Assembly (NCBI RefSeq): GCF_003334335.1
Contig: NZ_QOWQ01000070.1
Length of the DNA: 7,938 bases
Reading direction: 5' to 3' (one strand)
Source: Escherichia coli
GTDB taxonomy: Bacteria; Pseudomonadota; Gammaproteobacteria; Enterobacterales; Enterobacteriaceae
Below the pieces are notes generated by a model, which saw nothing but the letters and a program-made list of their open reading frames with translations, searched no databases and was not told the origin of the DNA. Position 1 is the first letter of the stretch. Each line of letters opens with the position of its first letter. Made by a program: the position numbers and the translations under genes. Shown here piece after piece: positions 6,441 to 7,770 of this stretch.

Positions 6441-7490
6441 TTACGCCAGTACGCCAATTGCCAGCGCGCGATCGATAAAACGAAATATCAGCTCCAGTTG
6501 GGAGCCATACTTATCTTCAAATGCCACTGTATCCGTATGCAGCTCGTTGTGATGCTTTCTGCACAAAGGCAACACAAAGAGATCATGTGCTTTTGTTCCC
6601 ATTCCGCCCTGCCCGTGACCAATCAGATGATGCGGATCGTCGGCTGGCATACCGCAGCAAGCACACGGCTGTGTCTTAACCCAACGTGTGTATTTCTCCT
6701 TAACCCAGCGGCGACGTTTAGGCAGCTTCATGAAAGATTCCGGAGACTCTGGATCAACGGTGATGCTTACCACCGTCTTTTCCTGTGGTGATTTTTGTTG
6801 CTGGTGGGCGTAAGGCAACGGTGCAAGATTTTTTGTGCGTTGTTTCAATATGCTGGTGGCGGTCTGCTCTCCCAGTACGATGTCGCTTTCGCGGTACACC
6901 GAGCAGATTTTTTCCGCTGGTAATCCCAGCGAACGACGCGATACAGCCTCAGGTAGTGCATCCACCACCTGATTGCAGACCGCCCACCAGGATAATTCAG
7001 CCAAAGATAATTCCCGCTCCTGCGTACCGCTTATTGCGTGACGGATGACGTCAATCACCCATGCTGTCAGATTTTGTTGAGCAAGCAGCTCCAGTGATTC
7101 CGATGTCTGGTCACGCAGTTGGTTGTCGCAGTGCCAGCACAACACCATTGCGCCGGTACCATAACGGTGAATGACTGTTTCAGTGTGATGGTAATCGCCA
7201 TTAGGCCACTGGCAGGATGTAACATGACGTAATAGCCAGTCGGACAATGCGCCAACGCCGCCAGCAGCACGAATCACCCGTTCGTTACTAAAAAACGGCA
7301 GCAATGTTTTGTCTTCCGCCAGCGGCTGGCGAACGGCAGGAACGACTCCGGATGGCAGATTACGCATGCTTTTTGGTTCCGGTTCCACCAGCACTCGAGG
7401 ATTATGAAATATCTGTATGGATTCACGGCCCGGCTTAAGGACCACCAGCCCAAGCTCAGGCACCAGAACAGGTCTAAGTAATACCCGCAC
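6441..7490 (-). CDS. ydfU: DUF968-family protein with C-terminal HNH-like nuclease motif (YdfU-like)
   Basis: ORF-track frame 6441..7529 begins with GTG and has no SD. The in-frame GTG at 7490 has GGAGG 4 nt upstream and gives 349 aa. The C-terminus CACCGMPADDPHHLIGHGQGG...CRKHHNELH has Cys/His spacing typical of HNH zinc-finger nucleases. Confidence 0.75.
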   Translation of the reverse strand: MRVLLRPVLVPELGLVVLKPGRESIQIFHNPRVLVEPEPKSMRNLPSGVVPAVRQPLAEDKTLLPFFSNERVIRAAGGVGALSDWLLRHVTSCQWPNGDYHHTETVIHRYGTGAMVLCWHCDNQLRDQTSESLELLAQQNLTAWVIDVIRHAISGTQERELSLAELSWWAVCNQVVDALPEAVSRRSLGLPAEKICSVYRESDIVLGEQTATSILKQRTKNLAPLPYAHQQQKSPQEKTVVSITVDPESPESFMKLPKRRRWVKEKYTRWVKTQPCACCGMPADDPHHLIGHGQGGMGTKAHDLFVLPLCRKHHNELHTDTVAFEDKYGSQLELIFRFIDRALAIGVLA

Positions 7491-7491
7491 G

Positions 7492-7770
7492 TTACCTCCA
7501 GATCCGTTGCTGGAAAGTGCGGGACGCACGTGGTGGGCGTTCGGAATAAGGCAGCCTGACAGAGATTATCCAGTGCCGATAGTCGAGACTGAGAGCTTTC
7601 TTAACCTCGAACCCGCGCCTGCGGTAAGAATGAATCAGCCATTCGGCCTGTTCTGCAGTGCATGGAGGGTGCTGGAACCATTCAGACTTGAATGCGTGAG
7701 AATACCGCCCGTGCGTGCAGGCAAGAACGGGCGAATTATCAGAATTGTAATATTTTGCGTTGCGTGCCAT
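7492..7770 (-). CDS. Hypothetical 92-aa prophage protein (at the position of rem in Qin)
   Basis: ATG at 7770 has GGAGAA upstream. The stop TAA (7492-7494) lies 1 nt from the downstream gene's GTG start, suggesting translational coupling. The product MARNAKYYNSDNSPVLACTHGRYSHAF... has no family I can recognise. Confidence 0.55.
   Translation of the reverse strand: MARNAKYYNSDNSPVLACTHGRYSHAFKSEWFQHPPCTAEQAEWLIHSYRRRGFEVKKALSLDYRHWIISVRLPYSERPPRASRTFQQRIWR

Follow-up and report, generated by a model that had tools for sequence, protein, structure and literature searches.

What do the two closely spaced genes that precede a Q-type antiterminator gene in an Escherichia coli prophage encode, and are they partners or simply neighbours? 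We considered this question in a window of 7,938 nucleotides, the whole stretch of DNA analysed here (contig NZ_QOWQ01000070.1 of assembly GCF_003334335.1). An earlier note, made from the sequence of this window alone, had described the genes as a coupled pair, one encoding a 92-residue protein and the other a DUF968 protein with an HNH-like motif, in a position equivalent to the nin region of lambdoid phages. Characterisation of the two proteins would explain two K-12 'y-ome' entries that are present in most E. coli genomes and would clarify why lambdoid phages swap NinG, YbcO, RusA and YdfU, the DUF968 protein, at one slot.

Layout and identity of the locus

Read directly from the sequence, the gene order on the minus strand is orf92, ydfU and the Q antiterminator gene. 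The first of these, orf92 (7492..7770), has 92 codons from an ATG at 7770 to a TAA at 7494-7492 and corresponds to the RefSeq hypothetical protein WP_012304870.1. The ydfU gene (6441..7490, minus strand) has 349 codons, from a GTG at 7490-7488 to a TAA at 6443-6441, and encodes the DUF968 protein WP_001265198.1. The Q-type antiterminator gene quuQ/ydfT (5675..6430, minus strand) starts with an ATG at 6430, 10 nt past the ydfU stop, and GGAG sits between the two. The gene boundaries, the 1-nt gap and the GGAGG at the junction all read as the earlier note had described them, and RefSeq agrees on the boundaries. Its placement of the pair in a nin region is likewise confirmed by gene order in related loci, where a nuclease slot lies just upstream of Q.

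The pair matches YdfU (b1560; WP_001265198.1) and the adjacent WP_012304870.1 of the E. coli K-12 Qin prophage. Nucleotide identity between the window and K-12 strains is 99.9%, with identical gene order and CDS calls, and the RefSeq annotation of K-12 C600 gives both coding sequences with the same boundaries (WP_012304870.1 and WP_001265198.1). Compared with K-12 Qin there is no meaningful coding-sequence difference, but the window carries a copy of IS1414 in the 3' end of rem, just upstream of orf92; the end of this copy (7862..7938) is context only and lies outside the module. The insertion is shared by a second record (H2), which is 99.3% identical to the window and for which RefSeq again gives WP_012304870.1 and WP_001265198.1. 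Most of the locus was found in 3383 of 5426 complete E. coli genomes. Both genes are familiar ones, already catalogued and derived from a very common defective E. coli prophage (Qin). The finding is real but ordinary, in that annotated genes are re-described and the HNH nature of YdfU is already published. A search of the region for structured RNA found none, and promoter and terminator scans of it gave no signal beyond shuffled expectation.

orf92 and its 66-aa family

The orf92 protein is very basic (pI 10.2) and consists of a conserved core and a variable extension. The 66-aa core (residues 27-92; 7495..7692, minus strand) is a member of PHROG 1212, whose profile it matches over its whole length (profile positions 1-66 of 66, E 1.7e-35); no Pfam family was found for it. 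It is modelled by AF2 at pLDDT >90, and the predicted fold is a small strand-helix-strand-strand arrangement followed by a basic tail that ends in [R/K]-hydrophobic-W-x. The N-terminal extension of 26 codons (7693..7770, minus strand) is largely confined to the family's Escherichia-type lineage, is modelled at low confidence and is under weak constraint (pN/pS 0.64). An independent profile search returned 75 cluster representatives of the family, mostly of about 66 aa, and homologues of this length are found across Enterobacterales, down to about 30% identity. The C-terminal 'QQRIW' of orf92 was also considered as a beta-clamp-binding motif, but lack of conservation of its leading Gln led us to abandon this reading.

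The phage record PhiR42_1 annotates, in place of orf92, an opposite-strand ORF of 137 codons (7417-7830, plus strand), and it could be argued from this that the latter is the real gene and orf92 a chance ORF. This reading is effectively refuted by the pattern of substitution in orf92's own frame, where pN/pS is 0.15 over codons 27-72 and 0.14 over codons 73-92 with substantial synonymous change (pS 0.24-0.41). The family of distant homologues and the confidently modelled core also stand against it, as does a GGAG 7 nt ahead of the orf92 ATG (7778..7781, minus strand), which is its likely ribosome-binding site. It is clear that orf92 is a real gene under purifying selection.

The HNH domain of YdfU

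The assignment of YdfU to DUF968 holds, with a Pfam match (PF06147) of E 8e-76 that spans residues 160-346 and model positions 1-171 of 171. YdfU also matches PHROG 96 'HNH endonuclease' (E 2e-170), and has weak Pfam matches to HNHc_6 and RecA_dep_nuc. The Cys/His cluster that had been called HNH-like lies in a C-terminal domain (residues about 265-345; 6456..6698, minus strand) and is a genuine, non-degenerate HNH or His-Me finger. The motif comprises C276, C279, H287-H288, D303, C310, H313-H314 and H318 (6537-6665, minus strand), and all of these residues are at least 90% conserved among 31 homologues that extend down to 27% identity. H287-H288, D303, H314 and H318 align to the HH...N...HH..H motif of IscB, so that the catalytic His and the helix metal ligands of the superfamily are present and conserved, and the domain has the beta-beta-alpha-metal fold. 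H288 is the likely general base, H314 and H318 probably bind the metal, and D303 takes the 'N' position of the motif. The pattern CxxC ... C..[CH] is conserved as C276, C279, C310 and H313, the last of which is C in some homologues, and these four residues would form a structural zinc site of CCCH type. YdfU is already listed by name in His-Me finger group 7, alongside YbcO (PDB 3g27) (PMC5714182).

Comparison with characterised or structurally solved relatives helps to place the protein. Profile-profile alignment of the YdfU C-terminus with YbcO-like proteins gave a probability of 72% (E 3e-5, 72 columns). YbcO of prophage DLP12 and phage 82 (DUF1364) has about 96 aa and is a finger alone, whereas YdfU adds a conserved N-terminal region of 190 aa, putatively a zinc domain, and a 70-aa linker. 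In a fold search the best structural neighbour of the HNH domain was the recombination enhancement nuclease Ref, and the closest HNH folds also include Cap5, a CBASS effector, and McrA. The structural similarity to phage P1 Ref, a RecA-dependent HNH nuclease (PDB 3plw), is real, but the match of YdfU to the corresponding Pfam family (PF16786) is partial and below Pfam significance (E 0.02, score 15.5) and does not make YdfU a member. The N-terminus of Ref is short, disordered and basic, and is not known to form a folded zinc domain. Phage P1 does encode a full-length YdfU homologue, PdcB, which is 26% identical over residues 32-348 and retains the N-terminal zinc motif; its HNH motif is degenerate, however, with HH changed to AH and HHxxxH to CQxxxE. 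The pdcB gene follows phd-doc-pdcA rather than lying in a nin operon, and it is non-essential in P1. A literature search found no published activity assay of YdfU or YbcO, nor biochemical or genetic work on either protein or on the 66-aa family.

The N-terminal domain of YdfU

The earlier note saw no recognisable fold in the large N-terminal region of YdfU. This stands in so far as no known match was found, but the region is far from featureless. Residues about 60-190 (6921..7313, minus strand) are conserved as strongly as the HNH domain and are modelled at a pLDDT of about 90 as helices and a beta-hairpin (105-118) leading to a helix (119-125). The homologue alignment reveals within them a probable CCHC zinc site with an adjacent conserved motif, made up of C93-Q94, H101 and C118-W119-H120-C121-D122-N123 (7122..7214, minus strand). 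C93, Q94, C118, W119 and D122 are invariant, and every other motif position is conserved in 90% or more of the sequences. Where all other members have H101 and C121, P1 PdcB and Vibrio phage H20 carry C101 and H121, an exchange that looks like a swap of zinc ligands. The first 55 residues are poorly modelled, as is the linker (residues about 191-264; 6699..6920, minus strand), which is variable and basic and carries indels between homologues.

In Pfam, profile and fold searches this domain matched neither a Pfam family nor any solved structure. Every hit of the AFDB50 fold search was a family member with a DUF968 or HNH annotation, so the search provided no functional lead. Sequence conservation marks out this half of YdfU as a domain of its own, putatively zinc-binding and without known relative, and its description is an addition of the present work. 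Fusions of Orf to HNH in Gram-positive phages, which share with YdfU the DUF968 name and a C-terminal zinc-finger HNH, have been described as Orf-like in their N-terminal part (Curtis et al. 2014, PMC4118853). An Orf-like N-terminus was rejected for YdfU, whose N-terminal and middle regions gave at most 2.4% probability in hhalign comparisons with YbcN/Orf or NinB profiles and no Pfam NinB match.

It is also conceivable that an internal duplication produced the domain as a second YbcO-like finger, in which case the enzyme would have two active sites. In the AF2 model the beta-hairpin is followed by a helix that starts at the conserved C118-W-H-C-D-N motif, and by eye the YdfU 'CQW...H..GTG...LCWHCDNQL' resembles the YbcO 'CQV...H..GTG...ACSACHDEI'. 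Despite this resemblance, hhalign of the domain against YbcO or against YdfU's own C-terminal domain gave no signal (probability <1%), and the His that might serve in catalysis (108 or 110) lacks conservation and is missing from Vibrio phage H20. We consider a duplication very improbable and have rejected it on these grounds.

The junction and its gene neighbourhood

GGAGG (7495..7499, minus strand), the Shine-Dalgarno sequence of ydfU, lies 4 nt ahead of the GTG and is contained in the final two sense codons of orf92 (TGG AGG). A single C (7491) separates the genes, and the junction reads TGG AGG TAA C GTG. This is the anatomy of a coupled pair, with stop and start within a few nucleotides and the Shine-Dalgarno inside the upstream ORF, and it makes translational coupling plausible: since the last codons of orf92 carry the ydfU ribosome-binding site, ribosomes that finish orf92 probably start ydfU. 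The TGG-(A/G)GG-stop architecture recurs across the 66-aa family, whose last codons in lambdoid phages always supply the Shine-Dalgarno of the next gene. Such tight spacing is not special to the pair: of 30 YdfU homologues in other species, 15 have a 4-nt overlap with the preceding gene, whichever it is. Coupling-type junctions are the norm in the operon. For ydfU, comparison favours the 349-codon model starting at GTG 7490. Homologues that follow unrelated genes all begin MRxLL at this start, several of them with ATG, and a 362-aa mechanical ORF from GTG 7529 was set aside as an older, over-long model.

Loci of the 66-aa family were collected by single-sequence scans of viral contigs and by exact-protein look-ups. 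In lambdoid phages the family gene lies between Orf/NinB and a junction nuclease, which may be NinG/Rap, YbcO, RusA or YdfU. NinG comes next in 69 of 73 Salmonella-type loci and YdfU in all 80 Escherichia-type loci (80/80). A second set of 31 loci, in every one of which Orf/NinB or YbcN lies upstream, divides into 17 with NinG, 13 with a YbcO-like gene and 1 with RusA. RusA or a RusA-like gene also follows in loci L212, L082 and L105/6/8. The gene in the window occupies the same position, immediately upstream of a nuclease gene and with the Shine-Dalgarno in its last codons; this positional feature of PHROG 1212 was derived here and is not a published definition.

Viewed from the side of YdfU, the association is looser. 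No gene of the 66-aa type was found within 3 kb upstream in 24 of 30 homologues from other species, and in a further 3 a RusA-like gene separates the small gene from the YdfU homologue. The other-species homologues follow RusA, KilA-N-type antirepressors or DNA methyltransferases, and YdfU often co-occurs with RusA. Whether the pair is conserved as a unit, a point raised by the earlier note, thus has a divided answer: it is fixed in Escherichia-type relatives and recurs in a diverged lineage (L209) whose small protein is 44% identical, but most other-species homologues do without the small gene. Because each gene has other neighbours outside the Escherichia lineage, orf92 and ydfU seem to be separate modules within a single recombination operon. 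That the pair is modular and not obligate, and that the 66-aa family lies consistently between Orf/NinB and a nuclease, are also additions of this study.

Proposed function and alternatives

The explanation that we favour, and which taken as a whole we regard as probable though well short of secure, is that the locus is the promoter-distal end (orf92, ydfU, Q) of a nin-type, or delayed-early, operon in a Qin-like lambdoid prophage. YdfU would be a two-domain, metal-dependent DNA endonuclease with its active site in the C-terminal HNH domain, and the N-terminal domain, with a probable CCHC site for a further zinc, would most likely recognise the substrate or a partner. The protein fills the slot that related phages give to NinG/Rap or YbcO, with or without RusA, and from this we infer that it may cut branched phage DNA, formed during recombination or replication, ahead of late gene expression and packaging. 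It would not simply be a substitute resolvase, because it so often occurs together with RusA. The orf92 product, small and basic, would be a distinct protein of this recombination module; its relatives sit between the Orf/NinB mediator and whichever nuclease the phage carries. It counts against this explanation that lambdoid gene order can be inherited without a functional link.

The branch-specific endonuclease NinG/Rap of lambda resembles YdfU in its position relative to Q and belongs to the same His-Me finger superfamily. In Salmonella and Klebsiella phages NinG directly follows the 66-aa gene, with a junction like that of orf92 and ydfU; in lambda, ninG is preceded by NinF, which we take not to be a member of the 66-aa family. 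NinG differs from YdfU in Pfam family and in architecture, and has been placed in His-Me finger group 24 (PMC5714182). YdfU has no Pfam NinG match and no BLAST similarity to Gifsy-2 NinG, so that with regard to NinG/Rap membership position alone is shared.

The regularity of the junction could also mean that orf92 is dedicated to the nuclease that follows it, which it might inhibit, in the manner of an 'immunity' protein, activate, or target as a subunit; coupling would then fix the stoichiometry. In nearly all of the examined lambdoid loci a nuclease gene does follow the 66-aa family gene within 1-4 nt, N15-like phages have the family gene followed by an RNase_T-type exonuclease-Lar fusion or preceded by an RdgC-like gene, and the pairing with a YdfU-type gene persists in L209 in spite of the divergence of its small protein. 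However, the downstream nucleases have unrelated folds (three families of His-Me finger, RusA and DnaQ-like), which are hard to reconcile with a single specific partner interface. Most YdfU homologues lack the small gene, and some family genes precede genes that are of unknown function or do not encode nucleases, among them YfdP, an uncharacterised 175-aa protein whose gene lies 48 nt downstream and a further gene at a distance of 270 nt. The 66-aa PdcA encoded before PdcB in P1 shows no similarity to the family profile and is unrelated to it. A dedicated partnership seems to us unlikely on this evidence. Less likely again is that YdfU is a conflict nuclease, acting in superinfection exclusion, host DNA degradation or anti-defence, and not a recombination enzyme. 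Cap5 and McrA are among its closest HNH folds, the module is extremely widespread and is kept in defective prophages, toxin-antitoxin modules adjoin the YdfU-type gene in both Qin and P1, and a study of Rho terminators lists ydfU among 'toxic prophage genes' (PMC9160355). Against this, neither protein matched any family of the PADLOC defence models, the position of YdfU within the delayed-early operon is constant, beside RusA, Orf and Q, and its best structural neighbour is Ref.

The recombination reading might be extended, although we offer the extension tentatively and consider it unlikely. The 66-aa family (PHROG 1212) could be an unrecognised third component of enterobacterial phage recombination modules, working with Orf/NinB and whichever junction nuclease comes next, and may use its conserved C-terminal [R/K]-hydrophobic-Trp tail to bind either a shared DNA intermediate or a host protein, for instance RecA, SSB or the clamp. 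The N-terminal CCHC domain of YdfU could likewise be a new fold for recognition of branched DNA or of a recombinase, which would make a targeted nuclease of a finger of the Ref/YbcO type.

A strong Rho-dependent terminator has been reported upstream of ydfU in K-12 (PMC9160355), and this also counts against the favoured explanation. It is therefore possible that orf92 and ydfU are silent in the lysogen, where translation of orf92 is putative.

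Locus structure and gene starts

The window is a Qin-type lambdoid prophage of Escherichia coli in which all features discussed here lie on the minus strand. The gene orf92 extends from ATG 7770, with GGAG 7 nt 5' of it, to TAA 7494-7492 (92 codons), and a single base (C 7491) separates its stop from the GTG of ydfU, which extends from 7490 to TAA 6443-6441 (349 codons). The Q-antiterminator gene begins at ATG 6430. Direct reading of the sequence bears out the earlier note, which had placed the orf92 stop 1 nt before the ydfU start with GGAGG in its final codons; this motif (7499-7495) is formed by the last two sense codons, TGG AGG. 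Read mechanically, the ydfU ORF reaches GTG 7529 and would encode 362 aa, as in the older P76162 model cited in the P1 record. Comparison speaks against this longer start: homologues from 30 other loci, behind various preceding genes, all open with MRxLL where GTG 7490 lies, many of them from ATG, which makes the 349-codon start the conserved one.

Both genes are already annotated and their products match K-12 RefSeq entries, so the finding is an ordinary one, though real. RefSeq lists the C600 genes in the order hokD, rem, WP_012304870.1 (hypothetical, 92 aa), ydfU (WP_001265198.1, 349 aa), ydfT/quuQ, cspF and cspB. By Megablast, 3383 of 5426 complete E. coli genomes carry at least 80% of the 1.6-kb query stretch, and K-12 derivatives match it at 99.9% identity. 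Only the upstream part of the window departs from the C600 gene order. Comparison identifies the last 77 bases (7862-7938) as the end of a copy of IS1414 (IS256 family) in the 3' end of rem, inserted as in strain HSP425; in this the window is like strains 67-1 and HSP425 and unlike K-12 itself. The IS1414 end includes the transposase C-terminus (...FIIEFGDRLDGHF-stop). Rfam families gave no match in the region.

The orf92 family

No Pfam or NCBIfam family matched orf92, and PHROG 1212 (unknown function) matches residues 27-92 over its entire 66-position profile. A word-indexed search found relatives only from Escherichia and Shigella, at identities of at least 58%; the full HMMER profile search found 75 cluster representatives, mostly of 65-70 aa, aligned to residues 27-92. 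This 66-aa family occurs in Gifsy-2, mEp237, SPN3UB, phiES15, PY54 and phages of Klebsiella, Edwardsiella, Hafnia, Erwinia and Pantoea. Its C-terminus reads R/K-hydrophobic-Trp-x-stop (alignment A2; 7495-7509 in orf92). This Trp probably has a role in the protein in addition to that in the Shine-Dalgarno, because it is retained even where the next gene is uncoupled, as in PY54 (48-nt gap) and at locus L211 (next gene 270 nt away).

Selection was analysed in 52 full-length orf92 alleles from IMG/VR loci, representing 36 distinct sequences. Constraint is weak over codons 1-26 (pN/pS 0.64), and pN/pS is 0.15 in codons 27-72 and 0.14 in codons 73-92, with pS of 0.24-0.41. Such low ratios at this pS indicate that the C-terminal 20 residues owe their strong conservation to selection on the protein, and not on DNA alone. 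In phage PhiR42_1 the CDS annotated in place of orf92 is a 137-codon ORF on the opposite strand (7417-7830, plus strand), antisense to orf92 and the start of ydfU. The selection pattern contradicts this ORF and favours orf92, and the opposite-strand annotation is probably a mis-annotation.

Conservation of the pair and its neighbours

Conservation of orf92 and ydfU as a unit, a point raised in the earlier note, holds for the closest loci and is absent from most homologues in other species. In IMG/VR, upstream sequence is retained at 79 of the 80 YdfU loci of highest similarity (identity at least 84%), and all 79 have orf92 with an identical junction, TGGAGGTAA-N-GTG; with the K-12 locus the total is 80 of 80. 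The orf92 alleles at these loci are 35-100% identical and vary independently of ydfU, which points to mosaicism inside the pair. Of the YdfU homologues in other species, 30 were compared (45-58% identity); 24 lack a member of the 66-aa family in the 3 kb upstream, and at three loci (Kosakonia, Phytobacter) a RusA-like gene separates the small gene from ydfU. The genes preceding ydfU in these species encode RusA, KilA-N/antirepressor, DNA methyltransferases or other proteins, mostly with a 4-nt overlap, as also seen in mEp390 and mEp460.

The small gene likewise has other partners. NinG/Rap follows it in 69 of 73 Salmonella-type loci and in Gifsy-2. In another 31 loci it is followed by NinG (17), YbcO-like (13) or RusA (1) genes and always preceded by an Orf-type gene, either DUF1367/NinB (PHROG 319) or YbcN. 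RusA or a RusA-like gene follows at L212 and L082, and a YdfU-type protein appears again at L209 and L210, after a small protein only 44% identical. In N15-like phages the gene lies behind an RdgC-like gene or ahead of one for an RNase_T-Lar fusion protein, and a few members precede YfdP or unknown genes. At one Salmonella-type locus (L204, 2695-3120) a 141-aa Cys-rich unclassified protein replaces NinG or YbcO. The lambdoid junction is always TGG-(A/G)GG-stop, 1-4 nt and a start codon. Because it is constant across alternative nuclease genes, the Shine-Dalgarno in the last codons belongs to the 3' end of the small gene, and this end would then be a mosaic joint for attaching such genes.

Domains of YdfU

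Pfam assigns residues 160-346 of YdfU to DUF968 (E 8e-76), with weak matches to HNHc_6 (1e-5) and RecA_dep_nuc (0.02), and PHROGs places the protein in family 96, 'HNH endonuclease'. The HNH assignment is already published and is not new: DUF968 and DUF1364 together form His-Me finger group 7, with YdfU and YbcO (PDB 3g27) named, RusA and Q noted as neighbours and a role in recombination proposed (Jablonska et al. 2017, PMC5714182). Our alignment comprises 31 full-length homologues with identities as low as 27%, including those of Klebsiella, Kosakonia, Serratia and Mixta prophages, Vibrio phage H20 and PdcB of phage P1. The C-terminal HNH-like Cys/His cluster described earlier was upheld, C276, H288 and D303 being invariant, C279, H287, C310, H314 and H318 kept in at least 90%, and position 313 either H or C. 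Several public YdfU entries (among P0121, P0127, P0130, P0240 and P0123-P0126) carry tandem duplications within the protein or are fused to Q (607 aa), seemingly as artefacts of assembly or of frameshifts. An additional Pfam accession, PF27659, is attached to the fusions and was not among the matches from the Pfam copy used.

The N-terminal region, said in the earlier note to have no recognisable fold, does have structure: the model of residues 60-190 has a pLDDT of about 90, and their conservation matches that of the finger. A fold search of AFDB50 with YdfU returned family members only, from Enterobacterales, Pasteurellaceae and Vibrionaceae. Residues 1-55 and 191-264 are modelled poorly, the latter being a basic linker of variable length. 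G77, W85-L86, C93-Q94, L117-C118-W119, D122, N140, E165 and W169 are invariant in the 31 homologues, and H101, H120, C121 and N123 almost so. In the predicted model a beta-hairpin (105-118) leads directly into a helix that opens at the C-W-H-C-D-N motif. The most distant homologues, PdcB and that of Vibrio phage H20, have Cys at 101 and His at 121, and the other 29 have His 101 and Cys 121 (alignment A4; 7122-7214). This reciprocal exchange points to the two residues as ligands of one metal, and the pattern fits one predicted CCHC zinc site of C93, H101, C118 and C121. The idea that this domain is a second YbcO-like finger found no support (hhalign probability below 1%). Gram-positive DUF968 proteins have been described with an Orf-like N-terminus (Curtis et al. 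2014, PMC4118853); this too found no support in YdfU (hhalign probability of 2.4% or lower).

Possible roles of the two proteins

On the favoured reading, the genes belong to a recombination module within the delayed-early operon, in which an Orf/NinB mediator (lost in Qin), a small basic protein and a junction-type nuclease, here YdfU, precede Q. YdfU most likely acts as a metal-dependent endonuclease, with the N-terminal zinc domain serving substrate or partner recognition; its likeness to Ref makes recombinase-directed cutting possible, as a lead only. Translational coupling of orf92 and ydfU is plausible, such coupling being ordinary for the whole operon. The small protein might be a dedicated regulator of YdfU, but the nucleases that partner it are unrelated in fold and the majority of YdfU homologues lack it. 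For these reasons we favour for orf92 an independent function, the target of which would be a common DNA intermediate or host factor. Neither protein matched defence-system models. The remaining interest lies in the uncharacterised predicted zinc domain of YdfU and in the steady placement of the 66-aa family beside phage nucleases.

Expression and related proteins

The lambda nin region has terminators, and a terminator reported upstream of ydfU recalls them. A K-12 study ranks the latter with the strongest Rho-dependent terminators (PMC9160355), so that without antitermination both genes probably stay silent. This terminator (in the region of about 7490-7860) would act on the rem/orf92 transcript, which raises the question of orf92 translation in the lysogen.

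P1 PdcB (L092, 2405-3448) is a full-length YdfU homologue in which the HNH motif is degenerate, HH being replaced by AH and HHxxxH by CQxxxE, and it may therefore be catalytically inactive; pdcB is already on record as dispensable and without an assigned function. PdcB comes after phd-doc and YdfU after relBE-hokD-rem, both thus downstream of toxin-antitoxin modules, possibly by coincidence. The quuQ product (5675-6430) has weak NCBIfam matches, far under curated cut-offs, to the DnaJ cysteine-rich zinc-finger region (CxxCxGxG repeats).
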